Origin: a bacterium
Lineage (GTDB): Bacteria > Patescibacteriota > Minisyncoccia > Phycocordibacterales > GWA1-40-21
Direction: 5' to 3'
NCBI GenBank assembly: GCA_037147155.1
Contig: JBAWVR010000002.1
Span: forward strand, 1 to 38,573
DNA length: 38,573 bases
Under the pieces are notes generated by a model. It did not search any database. It saw only the letters and a list, made by a program, of their open reading frames with translations, and had not been told where the DNA came from. A program made the translations under genes and the position numbers. Position 1 is the first letter of the stretch, and each line of letters begins with the position of its first letter. Positions 1,054 to 38,573 of this stretch are shown piece after piece.

Positions 1054-3519
1054 ATGTCAGACAAAAAAGATAAAAAAGTTGAGGAGGCGATTGTGCCACA
1101 CGTAAACGTCTCAGGACGTAGTATTACGACTGAAATGAAAGAGTGTTATTTGGACTATGCGATGTCCGTTATTACTCAGCGTGCTTTACCTGATGTTCGT
1201 GATGGTCTAAAACCAGTTCACCGTCGTATTCTTTTTGCTATGAACCAAATGGGTTTAACAGCAGGAGCCAAGACTCGTAAATCCGCCGCTGTGGTGGGTG
1301 AAGTGCTTGGTAACTATCACCCTCATGGTGACGTGGCAGTGTATGAATCTATGGTTAAACTCGCACAAGATTTTGCCTGTCGTTACCCTTTGATTATTGG
1401 TCAAGGTAACTTTGGTTCCATTGATGGAGATAGTGCTGCGGCCATGCGTTATACCGAAGCCAAGATGTCCAAGATGTCCTCTGAACTTTTGCGAGACATT
1501 GAAAAAGAAACTGTTAACTGGCGACCAAACTATGACAACACCAAGAAGGAACCTGAAGTGCTGCCAACCGCTGTTCCGAACTTACTTCTAAACGGTATTA
1601 TGGGTATTGCTGTCGGTATGGCCACCAACATCCCACCACACAACCTAGGTGAAGTGATTGATGCTACTTCATATTTGTTGGAGAATCCAAAAGACACCAC
1701 CACTGAAGATTTGCTCAAATTCATCAAGGGTCCTGACTTTCCAATGGGTGGAATTATTTTTAATGAAGCCGATATCAAGCGTGCATATGCTACCGGTCGC
1801 GGTGGTGTGGTTTGTCGCGGTCAGGCTGAAATCGTCGAAGACAAAAAAGGAGCTTTTCAAATTATCATTACTTCTATTCCGTACCGTGTGAACAAAGCGG
1901 ATTTTATTATGAGTATCGCGGACTTGGTTCGCGACAAAAAGATTGATGGTATTAAGGGTTTGCGTGATGAGTCGGCCAAGGATATTCGAGTGGCGATTGA
2001 CCTCAAGGCTGGAGCTCAACCGCAAAAAGTTTTAAATTTCCTTTACAAACACACTCAATTAGAAGATTCTTTCAACTTTAACGTCGTGGCTCTGGTTGAT
2101 GGTGTACCACAAACTTTGTCTCTCAAAGCAATTTTGGATAATTTTATTTCACACCGCAAGATTGTGATTCGTCGTCGTACAGAATTTGATTTGGACAAAG
2201 CTCTTGCACGTGAGCATATTTTGCTCGGCTTGAAGAAGGCATTGGACCATATTGACGAGATTATTAAACTCATCAAAAAGTCCAAAGATGTTGAAGAAGC
2301 TCGCTTGGCTTTGATGAAGACTTTCAAATTCTCTGAAATTCAAGCCAATGCAATTCTGGAAATGAAATTGCAGAAATTGGCTGGTTTGGAACGCAAAAAA
2401 ATTGAGGATGAATTGAAGGCGGTCCAGGCTCTGATTGAAGATCTGAAAGACATCCTAGCTAATCCAAAAAGAATCATCAAAGTCATCAAGGATGAATTGA
2501 TTGATATCAAAGCACGATATGGTGATGAACGCCGTACCAAAGTGGTCAAAGGTGGCGTCGCCAACCTCTCTGATGAGGATTTGATTCCGGATGAAGAAAC
2601 TGTTTTGGTGTTGACCGCTGGCGGTTATGTCAAACGCACCAATCCTGATGAATATCACAAACAGAAGCGTGGTGGTGTCGGTGTGGTGGATCTGGATACC
2701 AAAGAAGAAGATTTTGTGACTACACTTTTGACTACCACTACCCACAGTGATGTTCTCTTCTTTACCGATAAAGGCAAGGCCTTCCAGATCAAAATGTATG
2801 ATTTGCCAGAAGGTAAGCGTGCTACCAAGGGTAAGTCTATCGTGAACTTCCTCTCAATTGGTGACAATGAAAAGATTACCTCTGTTCTCGCTATGCCAAA
2901 GGGAGTGAAGAATTCTGGTCTCAGCTTATTTATGATTACCAAGCAAGGTACTGCCAAAATGGTAGAAGCCAAAGCTTTTGAAGATGTTCGTCGCAACGGT
3001 TTGATTGCTATTACCTTAAATGATGGTGATGAACTCAAGTCTGTCTCATTCGTGGACAAGGGTGATGATGTTATCGTCGCTACTACCAAAGGTCAGTCTA
3101 TTCGTTTCAAGGGCACTGATATTCGCGTCATGGGTCGCAATGCGGCTGGTGTCCGTGGTATCAAGCTTGGCAAGGGTGACTTCGTGATTGGTGCTGATGT
3201 GGTCAAGAAAGATATGGAGAATCCAAGCATGATGGTGATTTCGGCTAACGGTTACGGTAAGAAGACTCCACTCAAGGAATACAAGACACAGGGTCGCGGT
3301 GGTTCCGGTATCAAGACCATGAAGGTTACTCCAAAGACGGGAGAGATTATCAGTTCCAAAGTGGTATCAAGTGAGGAAGAACTGGTAGTAATTTCTAAAC
3401 AAAGTCAGGTTATTCGTACTAGTTTGGAAGAGATTCCATCACTCGGCCGTCAGACTCAGGGTGTGCGTGTGATGAAGCTTCGCGAGGGTGATGGCATTGC
3501 TTCACTTATTTGTCTCTAG
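1054..3519 (+). CDS. gyrA: DNA gyrase subunit A
   Basis: 821 aa. Contains [25 protein letters not shown], the catalytic region AAAMRYTEA, a GyrA-box-like KQKRGGVG, and repeated C-terminal beta-pinwheel blades. Confidence 0.95.
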
Positions 3520-3578: not shown

Positions 3579-3636
3579 TTTGCTACTATTATTTTTATTT
3601 GGTATAATATTAGAAGTTTACACGACACATTATTTT

Positions 3637-4164
3637 ATGTTTTCCGATCCCCAGAAAATTATTGACCAACTTTCATTAGCACCAGGACAAACGGTGTTGG
3701 ACTTTGGTGCTGGCTCTGGTCACTATACTCTAATTGCTGCACAAAAAGTTGGAGCTGGCGGTCGTATCTATGCGATTGATATTCAGACTGATCTACTCAG
3801 ACGTATTATAGGTATGGTAGCGGAAAAGGGTTTGATGAACACCAGTATTATCACTGCCGATCTCGAAAAAACTCAAAGTACCAACTTAAAACCAGGTCTA
3901 GCCGATTGGGCTTTTGTTGCCAACCTGTTGTTTATGCTTAAAGATAAGAAAAATATTTTGTCCGAAGCTTTTCGTTTACTGAAACCAAACGGTCGTTTAC
4001 TTATTGTAGATTGGAAGGAGTCTTTTAATGGACTCGGACCACAGTCAGAACAGGTGATAAAAGAGGCTGAAGTTAGACAATTGGCCGAACAAATTGGTTT
4101 TATTGTCCAGTCAAATATTGAGGCTGGCGAACATCATTATGGTTTAATATTTAAAAAACAATGA
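3637..4164 (+). CDS. class I SAM-dependent methyltransferase
   Basis: Motif I VLDFGAGSGHYT, then IYAIDI and LLKPNGRLLIVDW. The track start at 3550 lies inside the gyrA terminator hairpin, so the in-frame ATG at 3637 is preferred. An extended -10 (tggtataat) sits at about 3600. Confidence 0.75.
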   Translation: MFSDPQKIIDQLSLAPGQTVLDFGAGSGHYTLIAAQKVGAGGRIYAIDIQTDLLRRIIGMVAEKGLMNTSIITADLEKTQSTNLKPGLADWAFVANLLFMLKDKKNILSEAFRLLKPNGRLLIVDWKESFNGLGPQSEQVIKEAEVRQLAEQIGFIVQSNIEAGEHHYGLIFKKQ

Positions 4165-5934: not shown

Positions 5935-6270
5935 ATGAAAAAAATATTATTTATTTTACTTGCCTGGAGTCTGCCAATGTTTTTTGTTTTTGCTGCCAGT
6001 TCCGCCACTTTGGATAATCCATTAAAATGGGATACTTTGGAGGGGGCAGTGGCTGGTATTATGAGTGTGATTGTTAAAGTTGGTGCCATTGCTGTCATTC
6101 TAGCCTTTATTTGGGTAGGTTGGATGTATGTTAAGGCTCAGGGAGCACCAAAAGATATCGAGGCTGCACACAAGGCTTTTCAATACACAGTTATTGGCGC
6201 TTTGGTTTTATTAGGAGCTGATGTGATTGCTAATCTGATTGCTGGTACAGTCAAAACTATTCAAAAATAA
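5935..6270 (+). CDS. T4SS-pilin-like protein, paralog 2 (most canonical)
   Basis: Signal peptide; LDNPL motif; TM1; loop YVKAQGAPKDIEAAHKAF; TM2. This is the typical layout of CPR pilin-family proteins. Confidence 0.75.
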   Translation: MKKILFILLAWSLPMFFVFAASSATLDNPLKWDTLEGAVAGIMSVIVKVGAIAVILAFIWVGWMYVKAQGAPKDIEAAHKAFQYTVIGALVLLGADVIANLIAGTVKTIQK

Positions 6271-8960: not shown

Positions 8961-9041
8961 GCGCGAGTGGCGAAATTGGTACACGCACTTGCCTTAGGAG
9001 CAAGCGGGGCAACCCATGGAGGTTCAAATCCTCTCTCGCGC
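8961..9041 (+). tRNA. tRNA-Leu (anticodon TAG)
   Basis: Acceptor gcgcgag/ctcgcgc, anticodon loop cttagga, long variable arm, T-loop ttcaaat. No encoded CCA. Confidence 0.9.
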
Positions 9042-9078
9042 ACAAATTAAAATCCCCGAATGGGGATATTTTAATTTG
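9042..9078 (+). terminator. intrinsic terminator after tRNA-Leu(TAG)
   Basis: caaattaaaatcccc gaat ggggatattttaatttg. The stem can extend into the tRNA acceptor 3' strand and its downstream inverted copy. Confidence 0.8.
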
Positions 9079-9266
9079 TGCGCGAGAAACGAGCAATGGG
9101 AATTGCTCGTGTGAGGATTTGAAAGACGGAAGAATATTTTTAGTAAAAAATATTCTGAGTCGGGGTTGCGACCAGTTTTGGCTGACTGAGACAAAACTGA
9201 GTTGTGACCGAGTCCTCCTTATTCTGTCTCGAAGACGATCAGTAAATTATTCCTGACCGAGTCCTT
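9079..9266 (+). repeat. tRNA-matched trailing module, unit A
   Basis: tgcgcgaga + 25-nt hairpin + gaggatttgaa is the inverted tRNA-Leu 3' end. Then GAAAGACGG (9121), a hairpin with a tagtaa loop (9141), GAGtCGGGGTTGCG (9157), a second hairpin, GTGACC (9204), and tcctc pairing back. Tail: aattattcctgaccgagtcct. Confidence 0.7.
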
Positions 9267-10352: not shown

Positions 10353-10425
10353 GCGCCCATAGCTCAGTTGGTAGAGCAGTCGCCTCTTAAGCGATTGGTC
10401 GTAGGTTCGAATCCTACTGGGCGCA
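10353..10425 (+). tRNA. tRNA-Lys (anticodon CTT)
   Basis: Acceptor gcgccca/tgggcgc, anticodon loop tcttaag context (cgcctcttaagcg), T-loop ttcgaat. No encoded CCA. Confidence 0.92.
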
Positions 10426-10479
10426 CATCATAAATATTAAAAACCACCAGCTGTCCCTGGTGGTTTTGTTTATGATGTG
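10426..10479 (+). terminator. long intrinsic terminator hairpin after tRNA-Lys
   Basis: Inner stem aaaccaccag/ctggtggttt plus outer stem cacatcataaa/tttatgatgtg, which starts in the last nucleotides of the tRNA. Confidence 0.8.
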
Positions 10480-11593: not shown

Positions 11594-11619
11594 AAAAAAT
11601 CGCTAACGCGATTTTTTTG
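11594..11619 (-). terminator. intrinsic terminator after tRNA-Cys
   Basis: aaaaaaatcgc gtta gcgatttttt on the minus strand. Confidence 0.8.
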
Positions 11620-11691
11620 AGGCCTGGGGGAGAATCGAACTCCCGCATATTCCTTTTGCAGAGGAATGCTTTACCACTTAGCAACCAGGCC
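11620..11691 (-). tRNA. tRNA-Cys (anticodon GCA)
   Basis: Minus strand ggcctgg..cctctgcaaaagg..gggagttcgattctcccccaggcct. Confidence 0.9.
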
Positions 11692-20828: not shown

Positions 20829-20912
20829 GCGCAGGTGGCGGAGTGGTCAATCGCAGCAGACTGTAAATCTGTCGCCCATTGGGCTACGGGGGTTCAAATC
20901 CCTCCCTGCGCA
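20829..20912 (+). tRNA. tRNA-Tyr (anticodon GTA)
   Basis: Acceptor gcgcagg/cctgcgc, anticodon loop actgtaaat context, long variable arm, T-loop ttcaaat. Confidence 0.92.
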
Positions 20913-20954
20913 CACGAAAACAATCGACCGGAGACGGTCGATTTTTTCTTTGCG
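20913..20954 (+). terminator. intrinsic terminator after tRNA-Tyr
   Basis: aatcgaccg gaga cggtcgatt plus a T-run. It is embedded in a longer imperfect hairpin that reaches the tRNA 3' end and its inverted copy. Confidence 0.75.
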
Positions 20955-21092
20955 TGCGCAGGGAGGGATTTGAAAGACGGAGCACACGGAGCGGAGCTAA
21001 GTCCAAGTCTACCAAGACTTGGGTGCGAGTCCGGGTCGGAAAAATTCACGAGTGACGATGAGTGAATTATTTCTGACAATTCCCTCCCTGCG
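20955..21092 (+). repeat. tRNA-matched trailing module, unit E1 (long form)
   Basis: 20955-20974 is a perfect 20/20 reverse complement of tRNA-Tyr 20893-20912. Then AGACGGAGCACACGGAGCGGAGCTAAGTC, a hairpin, GGTGCGAGTCCGGGTCGG, a hairpin with a GTGACGAT loop, ATTTCTGACAATT, and the direct copy ccctccctgcg. Confidence 0.75.
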
Positions 21093-21218
21093 TAGGGATT
21101 TGAAAGACGGGAGAATATTTTTAGTAAAAAATTTGCTGAGACGGGGTCGCGAGTACTTAGACTTTTGAAATTTTGTAATTTCAAAAGACTTAGTAACTCG
21201 TGACCAAATCCCTCGCAC
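21093..21218 (+). repeat. tRNA-matched trailing module, unit E2 (short form)
   Basis: tagggattt GAAAGACGGG, a hairpin with a tagtaa loop, GAGaCGGGGTCGCGAG (21142), a long hairpin, CGTGACC (21200), then aaatccctcgca pairing back to the 5' arm. Confidence 0.75.
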
Positions 21219-22904: not shown

Positions 22905-23156
22905 ATGCTAAAACTGATACTGACTTTATATACAGCTCTTACGGAAACGTTTGTGGTTGGTAGTGGAGATTTTCCCGCTTTACCCGTGGAACATATAGAA
23001 ATGTTCTGCATCGAACCAATGGAATCTTTTGGGATTCCGCTATTGGGTCTAGGTAAACCCGAACTTCAAGATACTGCTTATTGCAACGCTTTCCGCGGTC
23101 AGAGCTTTTTCGAAACCGCGTTTATTCTGGGGAGATACCCAAGTGGTTTCAAGTGA
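22905..23156 (+). CDS. hypothetical 83-aa protein
   Basis: aaaggagagg SD before the ATG at 22905. The track start at 22872 is a less likely upstream alternative. A GC-rich terminator follows. Confidence 0.5.
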   Translation: MLKLILTLYTALTETFVVGSGDFPALPVEHIEMFCIEPMESFGIPLLGLGKPELQDTAYCNAFRGQSFFETAFILGRYPSGFK

Positions 23157-23189
23157 CCACCTGGGTATATAGATCGCCCGTTTAAGCCT

Positions 23190-23228
23190 GCCGGCCGCCC
23201 TTTCTCCAGATGGGTGCGCCGGCTTTTT
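23190..23228 (+). terminator. intrinsic terminator
   Basis: gccggccgc ... gcgccggc stem plus ttttt. Confidence 0.7.
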
Positions 23229-23294
23229 CATTTATAGACCCTTGCTTTTTACTAAAACATAATATATACTTGCTTGGTATTAAACATTAAATTT

Positions 23295-23453
23295 ATGTCA
23301 CAAGTCCAATTGATCAAACTCGGCTGTAAAACCTGTAAGCGAATTAATTACTGGAGCCGTAAGAATAAGAAGAAAGTTGAGCGCAAAATTGAGCTCAAGA
23401 AACTCTGCAAATGGTGTAAAAAAGTTACCATTCACAAAGAAGTTAAGAAATAA
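23295..23453 (+). CDS. rpmG: 50S ribosomal protein L33 (not in the ORF track)
   Basis: 52 aa: MSQVQLIKLGCKTCKRINYWSRKNKKKVERKIELKKLCKWCKKVTIHKEVKK. Two CxxC pairs and the L33 signature NY..KNKK..E.KKxC..C. Confidence 0.9.
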   Translation: MSQVQLIKLGCKTCKRINYWSRKNKKKVERKIELKKLCKWCKKVTIHKEVKK

Positions 23454-23462
23454 TTCTAAAAC

Positions 23463-23486
23463 AAAAAACCGCGAGAGCGGTTTTTT
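23463..23486 (+). terminator. intrinsic terminator after rpmG
   Basis: aaaaaaccgc gaga gcggtttttt. Confidence 0.85.
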
Positions 23487-23531
23487 GTTTGGTTGCTGAA
23501 AACAATATTTTAGGTTAAGATAGTTGGGTTA

Positions 23532-23603
23532 GGGTCCATAGTTTCAATGGTAAAACATCGCACTCCAAACGCGAGGTTCCCCGTTCGAGTCGGGGTGGGC
23601 CCG
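23532..23603 (+). tRNA. tRNA-Trp (anticodon CCA)
   Basis: Acceptor gggtcca/tgggccc (one G-U pair), anticodon loop ctccaaa context (cgcactccaaacgcg), T-arm ccccgttcgagtcgggg. Confidence 0.9.
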
Positions 23604-23635
23604 CAAATAAAAACGCCGAAAGGCGTATTTTTATT
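23604..23635 (+). terminator. intrinsic terminator after tRNA-Trp
   Basis: caaataaaaacgcc gaaa ggcgtatttttatt. With the flanking tgggcccg / cgggccca it forms a roughly 49-nt near-perfect palindrome. Confidence 0.8.
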
Positions 23636-23781
23636 TGCGGGCCCACAGCAGACAAACTGCTTTGTCTGCGTCCCGACTCGAAAGACGGAGCCATGTTTTT
23701 CTAGTAAGAAAAACAGGCGAGTCAGGATCGTGAAAATTAATCAATGACGATTGATTAATTATTCCTGATGATTCGGGGTGG
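23636..23781 (+). repeat. tRNA-matched trailing module, unit F1
   Basis: tgcgggccca + 26-nt hairpin + cccgactcgaa is the inverted tRNA-Trp 3' end. Then AGACGGAG, a hairpin with a tagtaa loop (23702), GCGAGTCAGGATCGTG, a hairpin with an ATGACGAT loop, ATTCCTGATGATT, and the direct copy cggggtgg. Confidence 0.7.
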
Positions 23782-23893
23782 CCCCGACTCGAAAGGCGCA
23801 AGTATATTTTGCTTTGCAAAGCAAAATACTGAGCCGGGATCGCGGAATTTTGTGAGCGACGGCGAGCAAAATATTTGTGACGATTCGGGGTGG
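23782..23893 (+). repeat. tRNA-matched trailing module, unit F2
   Basis: ccccgactcGAAAGGCG, a hairpin, CTGAGCCGGGATCGCGG, a hairpin, TGTGACG, then attcggggtgg. Confidence 0.7.
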
Positions 23894-23946
23894 ATTATTT
23901 AACCGCCGACAATTTAGAATATTCCCGATGATTCGGGGTGGGCCCA
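23894..23946 (+). repeat. terminal direct copy of the tRNA-Trp 3' end
   Basis: ..aatattcccgatgattcggggtgggccca matches the tRNA sequence gagtcggggtgggcccg at 15 of 17 positions. Confidence 0.5.
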
Positions 23947-23956
23947 TCTCCTCGGT

Positions 23957-24856
23957 TTATTTTTTTGTCATAAACTTTCTTATCAACTTCGCAATCCTAT
24001 TCTTATCTTTAAGTTCAAACCATTGAATATTTCTATCACGGCGAAACCAACCCTTTTGTCGGCGAGCATATTGCCAGATAGCCGAGTTCAATTGTTCTAT
24101 CATCTGGTCTTTGGTTATCTGTCCTGTGAGATAGCGGGTGAGATAGCGATACTCCAAACCAAAACCCTCCATGCGTTTCCAAGACACCCCATTATCATGA
24201 AGTTTTCTAATCTCTCTTAACATGCCCACCTTTAATCTTTTGATTAAACGTTTATAGATTCTTTCTTTCAAAACTTCATCAGGTGCAATAACTCCGATTT
24301 GTAGTACATTATATGGCTGTGATGTTTGAACCGGCGGGACTGAACCAATAGTTAAAACAATTTCCAACGCTCGAACAATTTTTACTTTGTTATTTTTATC
24401 AATACGGTCAAAAGTCTTTTTGTCCAATCTTTCCAATTGTCTGAGCAGGGAAGTCAGAGTTTTCTTTTCTAATTTAGCTCGTAGAATTTTATTTGGTTTA
24501 ACACTCGGATAAACAACATCATTGATAACAGCTTGAATATAGAAGCCAGTGCCACCACATATAATAGGAGTGTTTTGACGCTCCAGAATGCCCTTGATCG
24601 CCTTGTTGGCGTCTCTTTGGTATTTTGTTACATTGTATTCCGTCATTGGTTCTACGATGTCTAAGAGATGGTGGGGAACACCAAGCATTTCTTTCTTGGT
24701 GATCTTGCCAGTACCAATAGTCATACCGCGATAGATTTGACGGGAGTCAGCACTAACAATCTCGCCATGAATATCTTTGGCGAGTTCTACGGCGAGGTCA
24801 CTTTTACCGACAGCGGTTGGACCGAGGATAACGATTAATTTTGGTTTAGCAGACAT
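23957..24856 (-). CDS. miaA: tRNA dimethylallyltransferase
   Basis: Start taken at MSAKPKLIVILGPTAVGKS (P-loop). DSRQIYRGMTIGTGK and GGTGFY motifs. Confidence 0.9.
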   Translation of the reverse strand: MSAKPKLIVILGPTAVGKSDLAVELAKDIHGEIVSADSRQIYRGMTIGTGKITKKEMLGVPHHLLDIVEPMTEYNVTKYQRDANKAIKGILERQNTPIICGGTGFYIQAVINDVVYPSVKPNKILRAKLEKKTLTSLLRQLERLDKKTFDRIDKNNKVKIVRALEIVLTIGSVPPVQTSQPYNVLQIGVIAPDEVLKERIYKRLIKRLKVGMLREIRKLHDNGVSWKRMEGFGLEYRYLTRYLTGQITKDQMIEQLNSAIWQYARRQKGWFRRDRNIQWFELKDKNRIAKLIRKFMTKK

Positions 24857-25301: not shown

Positions 25302-25439
25302 CGGGAGAGAGACTTGGTCAGGCGTTCTTGGTTCGTCGTCACTCACCAAGCCGCACGACCCTGACTCGTGCTGGGATTCTGCTGAATCCCGACTTCGCTA
25401 CGCTCCGTGCACTCCGTCCTTCAAGTCTCTCTCCCGGCA
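25302..25439 (-). repeat. tRNA-matched trailing module, unit G1 (long form)
   Basis: 25420-25439 is a perfect 20/20 inverted copy of the tRNA-Leu(CAA) 3' end. Minus strand: GGACGGAGTGCACGGAGCGTAGCGAAGTC, a hairpin, AGCACGAGTCAGGGTCGTG, a hairpin with a GTGACGAC loop, CCTGACCAAG, and the direct copy tctctctcccgg. Confidence 0.75.
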
Positions 25440-25480
25440 CATATAAAACAAAAAAGCGCTCTGCGCGCTCTTTTAGTTTG
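25440..25480 (-). terminator. intrinsic terminator after tRNA-Leu(CAA)
   Basis: Minus strand aaaagagcgc gcaga gcgctttttt. Confidence 0.8.
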
Positions 25481-25563
25481 TGCCGGGAGAGAGACTTGAA
25501 CTCTCACGAGCTTGCGCCCGATAGATTTTGAGTCTATTGCGTCTACCATTCCGCCATCCCGGC
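25481..25563 (-). tRNA. tRNA-Leu (anticodon CAA)
   Basis: Minus strand gccgggatggcggaatggtag..tagactcaaaatcta..long variable arm..gagagttcaagtctctctcccggca. Confidence 0.9.
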
Positions 25564-38513: not shown

Positions 38514-38573
38514 TGTCGGATCGTCTAAAGGTAGGACAGTGGCCTTTGAAGCCATCAATCTTGGTTCGATTCC
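38514..38573 (+). tRNA. tRNA-Gln (anticodon TTG), truncated by the window end
   Basis: Starts with U1 (tgtcgga). D-arm gtct..ggac, anticodon loop ctttgaa, T-arm begins cttggttcgattcc. Confidence 0.8.

Follow-up and report, generated by a model that had tools for sequence, protein, structure and literature searches.

The DNA that follows the tRNA-Trp gene in this 38,573-nucleotide stretch (the whole of which we call the window) very probably belongs to a structured-RNA family that is attached to tRNA genes across a lineage of the candidate phyla radiation, the Paceibacteria/Minisyncoccia. Read along the tRNA strand, the order of parts in its modules can be given with high confidence: the tRNA and its intrinsic terminator are followed by antisense copies, first of the acceptor 3' strand and then of the T-stem 3' strand with the T-loop, between which a 9-bp hairpin may stand; next comes a conserved three-way-junction core, and lastly a sense copy. 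The sense copy in all likelihood consists of the 3' part of the T-loop and the T-stem 3' strand, often followed by the acceptor 3' strand with N73 and CA, and sometimes by a terminator of its own. There is little doubt that the arms are always those of the neighbouring tRNA and that the core is homologous between different tRNAs. These modules point to a new way of controlling or mimicking tRNAs. The Trp locus itself is best read, again with high probability, as 2.5 tandem copies of the module, with the following parts:

23532 to 23603, plus strand: tRNA-Trp(CCA), called by ARAGORN and matching the Rfam tRNA model with 50.8 bits; the CCA is not encoded in the gene
23584 to 23604, plus strand: X, the last ~21 nt of tRNA-Trp (T-loop, T-stem 3' strand, acceptor 3' strand, G73 and C74)
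23604 to 23637, plus strand: intrinsic terminator for both directions, composed of an A-tract, a GC stem (23613-23626) capped by GAAA and a U-tract; the centre of palindrome 23595-23646
23637 to 23646, plus strand: X'acc, GCGGGCCCAC, perfect antisense of the acceptor 3' strand with G73 and C74, which lengthens the terminator hairpin
23648 to 23669, plus strand: hairpin d, 22 nt with a 9-bp stem and a CUGC loop, inserted in the antisense arm precisely where its acceptor and T-stem parts meet
23672 to 23782, plus strand: unit 1, a predicted three-way-junction fold (covariance-model match 92.4 bits), made up of X'T CCCGACTCGAA at 23672-23682 (antisense of the T-stem 3' strand and whole T-loop), J12 (GAAA), P2 at 23684-23723 with a GGA/GA internal loop, J23 (AGG), P3 at 23727-23769, which contains CTGAT, and the sense copy GATTCGGGGTGG at 23770-23781
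23783 to 23893, plus strand: unit 2, of the same architecture (95.4 bits), with X'T from 23782 (overlapping the end of unit 1), GGATCG at 23837-23842, GTGACGA at 23877-23883 and the sense copy at 23882-23893
23894 to 23946, plus strand: partial unit 3, a remnant of the P3 3' half, with CCGATGA and the fullest sense copy, GATTCGGGGTGGGCCCA, at 23930-23946

The palindrome that a preliminary description of this DNA had placed across the end of tRNA-Trp is present at 23595-23646 (52 nt in full); it takes in the acceptor 3' strand, and its arms (23595-23613 and 23628-23646) are 19 nt long with 100% complementarity. A GC-rich hairpin followed by a U-tract, as in intrinsic terminators, is found on both strands at 23613-23626, in the centre of the palindrome only and not in the units. 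The two units noticed earlier are indeed two full units of 111 nt each (62% identical to one another), which share one three-way-junction fold with z values of -4.4 and -4.5, and the P3 of unit 2 is of the same type as that of the single unit at locus L011. The inverted T-arm copy CCCGACTCGAA is complementary to tRNA positions 23584-23594 at 11 of 11 positions, and a second inverted copy lies at 23782-23796. A hairpin does separate the inverted acceptor and T-arm copies as had been reported, with a true length of 22 nt rather than 26. X'acc is the same in L007 (the closest relative, below) and is present in L011 and in all nine of nine metagenome loci, which were chosen by a pattern that itself demands X'acc.

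Direct copies of GATTCGGGGTGG at 23770, 23882 and 23930, preceded by the heptamers CTGATGA, GTGACGA and CCGATGA, respectively, were correctly described, as was the last copy, which is identical to tRNA-Trp at 15 of 17 positions and ends at 23946, 10 nt short of the miaA stop codon (23957-23959). (The identical MiaA protein occurs in three samples, on the same contig with identical DNA.) No exact or one-mismatch copy of these motifs was found elsewhere in the 38.6 kb, and shuffled sequences gave 0.5-0.7 matches even at two to three mismatches. The CUGAUGA-type heptamer does not represent a conserved catalytic or C-box motif: the family consensus is YUGAY plus a variable base (for example CUGACC and GUGACC), and the heptamer region forms the 3' strand of P3 and P1 and is base-paired across the family. 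The "direct copies" are the 3' strands of each unit's closing helix, not att-type scars.

Nor is the element peculiar to tRNA-Trp. All seven complete tRNA genes of the window have a common layout in which an intrinsic terminator is followed by an antisense copy of the last 11-24 nt of the tRNA; in six of the seven there follows a three-way-junction core of ~110 nt, after which the T-arm/acceptor 3' strand is repeated in sense orientation, and tRNA-Leu(UAA) has the antisense copy only. The members found at the other six genes are these:

9112 to 9266, plus strand, after tRNA-Leu(UAG) (8961-9043): a full unit at 9112-9218 and a 3' partial unit; 81.2 bits
10470 to 10605, plus strand, after tRNA-Lys (10353-10426): rearranged family members; 38.7 bits
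11478 to 11592, minus strand, after tRNA-Cys (11619-11691, minus strand): one unit; 95.6 bits
11324 to 11341, minus strand, after tRNA-Leu(UAA): a relic, 18 nt antisense to the tRNA 3' end straight after the terminator, without a core
20963 to 21214, plus strand, after tRNA-Tyr (20829-20913): units at 20963-21087 and 21093-21214; 107.6 and 58.7 bits
25244 to 25431, minus strand, after tRNA-Leu(CAA) (25480-25563, minus strand): a unit at 25307-25431 and a 3' partial unit; 107.7 bits

The paralogous units within the window are 43-72% identical, and P1 of the tRNA-Leu(CAA) unit has 16 perfect base pairs. If the family is as it appears, ~3% of the window (about 1.3 kb of 38.6 kb) consists of structured RNAs tailored to each tRNA, in ultra-small bacteria.

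The covariance model finds 26 units at E<1e-6 in 10 sources. Twenty-five of these lie downstream of, and co-oriented with, a tRNA (the first unit begins 27-73 nt past it), and the remaining one is in L043, a locus without a called tRNA; the layout is also found at tRNAs of 11 further loci, and the same homologous core serves at least seven different tRNAs. On 854 kb of unrelated viral DNA the model matched two units in L043 only. The viral contigs had been searched with a loose core pattern, whose matches (at least 120) were mostly due to chance, and among the 100 loci checked the covariance model kept L043 alone. One unit-bearing locus is on a contig classed as viral by IMG/VR, and a BLAST search of 23596-23950 against 50,697 phage records gave no match. 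A strict three-block DNA pattern run on one genome per species gave just three chance matches in unrelated phyla, without the closing helix; this pattern was too narrow because it demanded the Trp-specific arm sequence.

The distribution is patchy: units are found at 0 of 2 tRNAs in L141 and L143, and some tRNAs lack them in L016, L017, L019 and L020, so the module is dispensable for tRNA function. Such unit-less tRNAs have plain terminators without the antisense extension. Several distinct core types occupy the same frame, P2 and P3 segments are shared mosaically among units of different tRNAs and genomes, and in L011 the tRNA and module are inverted as one block. The sense copy is complete through N73-C-A in six loci (L013, L017, L018, L019, L020 and L142) and is then followed by its own terminator in L013 (Tyr), L017, L018 and L142 (Tyr). 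Its acceptor part is cut short in L007, in L016 and in units 1 and 2 of the window; an acceptor-type stem with an N73 3' end is complete in the six loci and in the last copy at the window's Trp locus.

The cores fold and covary as RNA. In the core pairing 94.9% of cells are paired, compared to 61% when the sequences are shuffled and about 40% for slid controls, percentages that are somewhat inflated because the alignment was fitted to the covariance model, and all 29 of the 29 core pairs show double (compensatory) changes. Hairpin d, aligned over 19 loci, has 95.7% of cells paired and double changes in nine of its nine pairs. G-U combinations outnumber A-C by 38 to 9 and one G-U pair is conserved, and the fold therefore lies on the tRNA-sense strand. 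In the core consensus J12 is GAA(A), P2 has a G-N-A/G-A internal loop and an AGCA-type loop, J23 is N-G-G, and P3 starts with GUCG/UGAC and contains the conserved G-U pair and a GACG loop. A kissing contact of the hairpin d loop (CUGC) with the P2 loop (AGCA) was considered and discarded, as the latter is unchanged where hairpin d is absent or has a different loop.

The closest relative, L007, has a MiaA protein that is 90% identical to that of the window, with synonymous third positions 66% identical. Between the two, tRNA-Trp is identical at 72 of 72 positions, the antisense arm and hairpin (23638-23671) at 34 of 34, and unit 1 at 103 of 110, with three compensatory pairs and none broken; the terminator is identical at just 24 of 34 positions, with its hairpin retained. 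By this sequence comparison the tRNA-proximal part of the Trp element is under purifying selection, and for that part the functional element implied earlier, as opposed to a decaying scar, is supported. The 310-nt block is not conserved in its entirety: unit 2 and partial unit 3 are absent in L007, which has a new tRNA-proximal unit at both Leu(CAA) and Tyr.

The antisense arm follows the adjacent tRNA closely, with 16 mismatches in 288 positions; it even tracks the deviant T-loop in L016, where UCCGAUU is paired with AAUCGGA. The sense copy is less faithful (41 mismatches in 216), and the antisense arm fits the tRNA better than it fits its own P1 partner; P1 of the Trp units keeps a conserved C.U mismatch. 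In the window's clade, only the tRNA itself offers a partner for the acceptor part of the antisense arm. The arms, perfect over 19-24 nt, match the gene including its non-CCA trailer (N73-C-A-A), not the mature CCA-ended tRNA. When read-through transcripts are folded, the predicted MFE structure in nine of 11 constructs pairs the 5' acceptor strand of the tRNA with the distal sense copy, and in these same nine the tRNA's own 3' half sits in a long hairpin; at the Trp locus the predicted partner of the 5' acceptor strand is the sense copy of partial unit 3. Imposing the normal acceptor stem on the read-through constructs costs 10-25 kcal/mol, in an energy model that takes no account of modifications, of the tertiary structure of tRNA or of folding kinetics during transcription. 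No cognate-specific pairing was found when unit cores were compared with tRNA positions 1-53 (8.24 nt for cognate and 8.26 nt for non-cognate pairs).

The module may be a two-state strand-exchange device that acts in cis on its own tRNA. Most transcripts would end at the terminator and give a normal pre-tRNA; the terminator looks efficient, and read-through RNA may therefore be rare. Read-through would make the antisense arm, and branch migration would then extend the terminator hairpin so that the tRNA loses its own 3' half. Once the three-way-junction core had folded, the sense copy could either close the junction (P1) or pair with the orphaned tRNA 5' strands. The output would likely be a gating or quality control of read-through tRNA precursors, and a putative protein or ligand would select the state by acting at the conserved junction. 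The step in which a replacement 3' half is supplied is weakened because sense copies often lack some of their acceptor part. We regard this mechanism as a whole as credible but somewhat doubtful; a tRNA-attached RNA family that acts by strand exchange is our best explanation overall, and we hold it with a little less than even confidence.

A more specific version of the strand-exchange model, which we think unlikely, gives every tRNA gene its own cis RNA switch, in which the three-way junction would be a sensor for a putative metabolite or protein ligand. The ligand would decide whether the antisense arm is locked in P1, so that the tRNA matures, or invades the tRNA, whose 5' body would be passed to the spare 3' half. 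If this were true, riboswitch-like control or 3'-half replacement would act on tRNA biogenesis genome-wide. The presence of multiple core types in one frame is not obviously expected from a single sensor and counts against the strand-exchange model.

The same core variety would suit cargo in a scaffold, as it would be if the functional form were the closed unit, with the antisense arm paired to the sense copy as a stand-alone mimic of a tRNA minihelix. Its 12-16-bp helix would carry the cognate tRNA's 3' strand, discriminator and CA, a three-way junction would replace the T-loop, and a side hairpin would stand where the D and anticodon arms leave. RNase P and RNase Z would excise it from read-through RNA, and the product would serve as a stable small RNA, or as a decoy that draws off enzymes or toxins recognising the acceptor/T helix. 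Single units do fold as closed three-way junctions, the P1 of the tRNA-Leu(CAA) unit reaches 16 perfect base pairs, and the six loci with sense copies complete through N73-C-A, along with the four that add a terminator, speak for it. Yet the units have no T-arm with a T-loop (UUCRANY), the feature by which RNase P, RNase Z and the CCA-adding enzyme chiefly recognise their substrates, and ARAGORN and the Rfam tRNA and tmRNA models call none of them. Many units have a sense copy with a degenerate acceptor part, the antisense arm prefers the tRNA to its P1 partner, and a generic minihelix has no need to copy the adjacent tRNA, so that we give this explanation only a low probability.

We also think it rather improbable that the modules are selfish, non-autonomous RNA or DNA elements, whose antisense arm would serve as a guide or homology arm for insertion into the T-loop of a tRNA gene or immediately behind the gene. 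A carried or duplicated 3' end would keep the tRNA intact, and arrays would lengthen through further insertions or when sense copies cross over unequally. The patchy occurrence among related genomes, the different array content of the window and L007 (gains at Leu(CAA) and Tyr, Trp units 2-3 missing), the mosaic sharing of P2 and P3 segments and the locus on an IMG/VR viral contig all accord with this, and the flanks resemble a direct duplication of the tRNA 3' end, as after integration. Against it, no integrase, transposase or reverse-transcriptase domain is recorded for the called genes round miaA or was found in 10 further open reading frames scanned, and orthologous units stay at their positions with compensatory changes and with a conservation well beyond the neutral level. 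The paralogues are 43-72% identical and there has therefore been no recent burst, unlike the situation with MITEs. Moreover, each locus has "terminal repeats" of its own that equal the neighbouring tRNA, a pattern not produced by the logic of any known transposase or integrase.

The perfect 19-24-nt arms that track the gene with its non-CCA trailer, and the inversion of the tRNA-plus-module block in L011, could also be accounted for at the level of DNA, if the palindrome served as a cruciform or single-strand hairpin in recombination or replication, or guarded the tRNA gene from integrating elements. This is very unlikely: the orientation always follows the tRNA, on both DNA strands of one 38-kb window, the conserved core helices are outside the palindrome, and the excess G-U pairs and the one conserved G-U pair would be C.A mismatches on the opposite strand. 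Hardly more can be said for rearrangement debris, in which the direct copies would be att-type scars and the antisense copy would stem from a tandem inversion duplication seeded at the T-arm and terminator palindromes. Direct repeats starting in the T-loop are the classical footprint of tRNA-gene integration, a direct-inverted-direct order round a palindrome is a product of snap-back template switching, and partial units and relics do occur; this highly improbable reading is nevertheless largely refuted by the strong covariation, by the strand-specific conserved G-U pair and by the 94-100% conservation in L007 where synonymous sites are 66% identical, and a homologous core behind many tRNAs in many genomes is also at odds with it. 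Finally, tRNA processing or modification by a self-cleaving hammerhead-like ribozyme or by a C/D-box K-turn RNA is scarcely tenable, even though CUGAUGA and CGAAA flank the three-way junction of unit 1 and ribozymes beside tRNAs are known (e.g., the theta ribozymes of phages), for no Rfam ribozyme or snoRNA model matches 23200-24100 at E<=10, position 8 (G) of the heptamer is not conserved (CUGACC, GUGACC) and the heptamer is paired in P3 and P1, and the modules lack both the A15.1-U16.1 pair and an H17 following P2.

If the family is what it seems, the modules would be a new class of tRNA-linked RNA; the fate of read-through tRNA precursors would become testable, and tRNAs might prove to be regulated or repaired by strand exchange. 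Even if they should prove selfish, they would represent a new use of tRNA genes as safe harbours, with locus-specific arms. The covariance model is a ready tool for annotating thousands of "empty" intergenic regions of Patescibacteria.

Rfam 15 has no family for the modules, and we found no description of them in the literature searched. The cmscan searches (E<=10 on 23200-24100, the gathering threshold on the whole window, and E<=0.01 on three related loci) returned only tRNAs, one LSU rRNA match (L013) and chance matches. The modules share with the hammerhead a three-way junction, GAAA in one joining strand and, in two Trp units, a CUGAUGA-like heptamer. The unpaired hammerhead core CUGANGA (C3-A9) is lacking in the family, which has CUGACC, GUGACC and CUGACAA; after GAA(A), P2 opens with a covarying G-C pair, and A/C/G and then an invariant GG follow P2. 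A box C/D K-turn was rejected on the heptamer, which is not conserved, on the lack of guide complementarity beyond the tRNA 3' half and on the absence of a snoRNA model match. MITEs and other non-autonomous transposons were set aside on the terminal arms, which differ per locus and equal the adjacent tRNA, and on the divergence of the paralogues (43-72% identity). A retron ncRNA would have the closing helix seen here, but no reverse-transcriptase domain is recorded or was found for the window and locus genes checked.

Retroviral and LTR primer-binding sites likewise have ~18-24 nt exactly complementary to a tRNA 3' end up to the T-loop; the module differs in that it matches the gene trailer (N73-C-A-A) and adjoins its own tRNA gene, and no reverse-transcriptase domain was found. 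Duplicated att sites and arrays of cis-mobilisable remnants also have direct repeats that run from the T-loop to the tRNA 3' end (present here at 23770, 23882 and 23930 and at other tRNAs) and grow in tandem beside an intact tRNA. An att scar was rejected, as no recombinase domain is recorded for the called genes round miaA or was found in the 10 further open reading frames, and there is no neutral decay (94-100% conservation, with compensatory changes); unlike att duplications, the module repeats enclose only ~110-190 nt, include an antisense copy, and bound a covarying RNA under purifying selection.

Like a riboswitch or T-box, the module has a junction domain closed by a P1 helix whose 5' strand has a competing upstream partner, and it is tied to one tRNA. 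It lies 3' of a tRNA gene and its terminator rather than in an mRNA leader, however, and its competitor is the tRNA's own 3' half in cis. Identity with the T-box was rejected, there being no specifier- or anticodon-type pairing (8.24 vs 8.26 nt) and no UGGN bulge. Other parallels are with the tRNA mimics, namely the t-elements of plant mitochondria, mascRNA, the tRNA-like domain of tmRNA and the YrlA Y RNAs. In these, as in the modules, a helix imitates the stacked acceptor and T stems; complete modules also have a tRNA-like 3' end (N73, CA and terminator), with a side hairpin where the rest of the tRNA would be. The modules differ from all of these mimics in having a conserved three-way junction in place of the T-loop, and in that their 3' strand copies the adjacent tRNA and their 5' strand is its exact antisense, with at least one module per tRNA gene.

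The DNA between the tRNA-Trp gene and the end of miaA very probably holds a 2.5-unit array belonging to a conserved RNA-module family linked to tRNA genes. Its parts are as follows:

23532–23603, tRNA-Trp(CCA)
23595–23646, hairpin of 52 nt that takes in the tRNA acceptor 3' strand; its 19-nt outer arms are perfectly complementary
23613–23626 with flanking A and U tracts, intrinsic terminator, scored on both strands, at the centre of the 52-nt hairpin
23648–23669, hairpin of 22 nt directly after the 52-nt hairpin
23672–23682, CCCGACTCGAA, perfect antisense match to the T-loop and T-stem 3' strand of the tRNA
23672–23782, unit 1 (111 nt)
23783–23893, unit 2 (111 nt)
ending at 23946, partial unit 3

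The final stretch of each unit, GATTCGGGGTGG, repeats the T-loop and T-stem 3' strand of the tRNA in the sense direction; the last of these copies runs on to GGGCCCA, is identical to the tRNA at 15 of 17 positions, and finishes at 23946, leaving 10 nt to the miaA stop codon. The preliminary description of the sequence was correct throughout, except that the hairpin separating the acceptor and T parts of the antisense arm is 22 nt long rather than 26. The element is not peculiar to tRNA-Trp; it follows all seven complete tRNA genes of the window, and their downstream regions have a common layout of terminator, antisense of the gene's own 3' end, homologous core, and sense copy of its own T-stem and acceptor 3' strand. 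At tRNA-Leu(UAA) only an antisense relic of this layout is left, at tRNA-Lys the layout is rearranged, and in other loci it is present after Leu, Tyr, Lys and Ala tRNAs.

Folding predicts the identical three-way junction for both full tRNA-Trp units. P1 is the antisense piece paired with the sense copy, P2 a hairpin with a GGA/GA internal loop, and P3 a hairpin whose 3' strand includes the "CUGAUGA" and "GUGACGA" pointed out previously; the joints J12 and J23 are GAAA and NGG, respectively. A covariance model made from 12 units identifies 26 units in 10 sources (E<1e-6), 25 of which follow a tRNA gene in the same orientation, on either DNA strand (the other is in locus L043, where no tRNA was called). 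In the alignment of these units 94.9% of cells are paired, versus 61% after column shuffling and about 40% with slid partners, and two-sided changes are present in 29 of 29 pairs, figures that are somewhat inflated because the alignment was fitted to the model; compensatory changes were already present in 26 of 28 pairs of an independent MAFFT alignment. In the 22-nt hairpin, pairing reaches 95.7% across 19 loci and all nine pairs covary. The excess of G-U over A-C combinations in the family alignment (38 versus 9), a conserved G-U pair at the base of P3 and the constant orientation to the tRNA assign the unit structure to RNA of the tRNA-sense strand.

Other core types occur in the same frame at L142 (Trp), L012, L019 and L011 (Tyr). 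tRNAs with no unit are followed by ordinary terminators that lack the antisense extension, and in some related genomes units accompany none of two (L141), none of two (L143) or two of three (L142) tRNAs. The two L043 units (2849–3187, minus strand, of IMG/VR contig IMGVR_UViG_3300033463_005745, classed as viral) have a terminator of their own and repeat a tRNA 3' end in the sense direction; an intact tRNA was not found within the 3.3 kb examined of this 34.7-kb contig, and the covariance model has no other matches in 854 kb of unrelated viral DNA.

By its MiaA the host is placed in the Minisyncoccia/Paceibacterota of the candidate phyla radiation, and its closest relative is L007 (MiaA identity 90%). 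The syntenic comparison proposed in the preliminary description has a divided outcome: L007 shares the tRNA-Trp, palindrome, hairpin and unit 1, and units 2 and 3 are absent. Identity is 72/72 in the tRNA, 34/34 in the antisense arm and hairpin, 103/110 in unit 1 (seven differences, all but one of which belong to three compensatory P2 pairs) and 24/34 in the terminator between tRNA and arm. For miaA, identity at synonymous third positions is only 66%, and conservation of the proximal module despite this rules out its neutral decay. In L011 (MiaA identity 64%) the tRNA T-stem is CUCAG/CUGAG, and P1 of the unit is altered to match. A metagenome scan for the palindrome gave nine more tRNA-Trp loci, all alike in the order of parts, and the antisense piece tracks the T-loop of its own genome (UUCGAGU, UUCGAUU, or UCCGAUU in L016).

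Of 288 positions compared, the antisense arm agrees with the tRNA at 272; the sense copy is less faithful (41 mismatches in 216 positions, some due to imperfect location of the copy). A C.U mismatch in P1 is conserved in every Trp unit of the window and L007, and the acceptor part of the arm, which in the window's clade has no partner inside the unit, is nonetheless perfect and identical in L007. It therefore appears that pairing of the arm with the tRNA's own 3' half is under selection, beyond closure of P1 alone. Purely thermodynamic folding of complete read-through transcripts predicts a common arrangement for 9 of 11 loci, in which the tRNA 3' half and the arm together form a long hairpin, the 22-nt hairpin branches at the acceptor/T junction, and the distal sense copy pairs with the tRNA 5' acceptor strand; forcing the normal acceptor stem costs 10–25 kcal/mol.

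The most economical model, which we advance tentatively, is a two-state, cis-acting strand-exchange device in terminator read-through transcripts, which would gate or quality-control the tRNA precursor. A closed tRNA-minihelix mimic, freed by tRNA-processing enzymes, seems unlikely, and a selfish, possibly domesticated hitch-hiker on tRNA genes more unlikely still. The patchy distribution of units and the turnover of arrays between the window and L007 suit an element that is dispensable or selfish. Conservation of units in place, with compensatory changes, and paralogues that are old and diverged suit an RNA maintained by the host. A function of the palindrome in DNA is very improbable, debris even more so, and a ribozyme the least probable of all.

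Several other features were observed in the window and its relatives. No window tRNA gene of the seven (3' ends 9043, 10426, 11372, 11619, 20913, 23604 and 25480) encodes CCA; all read N73-C-A, followed directly or within a few nt by a hairpin with a U-tract and, in most cases, an A-tract in front (bidirectional terminator type). An eighth tRNA gene (38514–38573, plus strand, 38.3 bits with Rfam tRNA) has its 3' end cut off by the window end. Next to a solute-binding protein gene are two ORFs that encode type IV secretion system pilin domains (PF18895; 5459–5908 and 6273–7061, plus strand). Hairpins upstream of rpmG (window 23115–23230, L007 3740–3850) are conserved with compensatory changes (cccaagtgg..ccacctggg versus ccctagtgg..ccaccaggg) and have no Rfam match at gathering threshold. 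Another short repeat in L007, GACCTAATTTTCTTCACGG...GTAGAAAATGGAA.TGCCCGTAGATTGGT (about 70 nt), lies upstream of rpmG (3610–3700) and within the second unit after tRNA-Tyr (about 6140–6200), and may be a MITE-like insertion. In L011 (5348–5590) tRNA-Trp, terminator and unit form a block whose orientation towards its neighbours rpmG and miaA is the reverse of that in the window and L007. In L013, 100 nt outside any rRNA gene (2452–2552, plus strand), situated between tRNA-Trp and the terminator of rpmG, match bacterial 23S rRNA 2121–2220, the L1-stalk region (51.9 bits), and may be an L1-stalk mimic or r-protein leader.

The tRNA-Trp units match no Rfam 15 family at E≤10, and Rfam has none for the units at gathering threshold across the whole window and none matching in three related loci; the literature searched held no description of such elements. 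No integrase, transposase or reverse-transcriptase domain is recorded for the genes called around miaA, and 10 further ORFs scanned yielded none. The repeats are not att scars, as they enclose selected RNA structure, and MITEs are rejected because the terminal arms differ at each locus and paralogues are only 43–72% identical. Neither a hammerhead nor a C/D box fits, since the heptamer is paired and not conserved, the rest of the core positions are missing, and no model matches. A T-box would require cognate-specific pairing beyond the tRNA 3' half, which the units lack, and in comparison with a tRNA-like structure the complete forms have an acceptor-like stem, but the T-loop is replaced.
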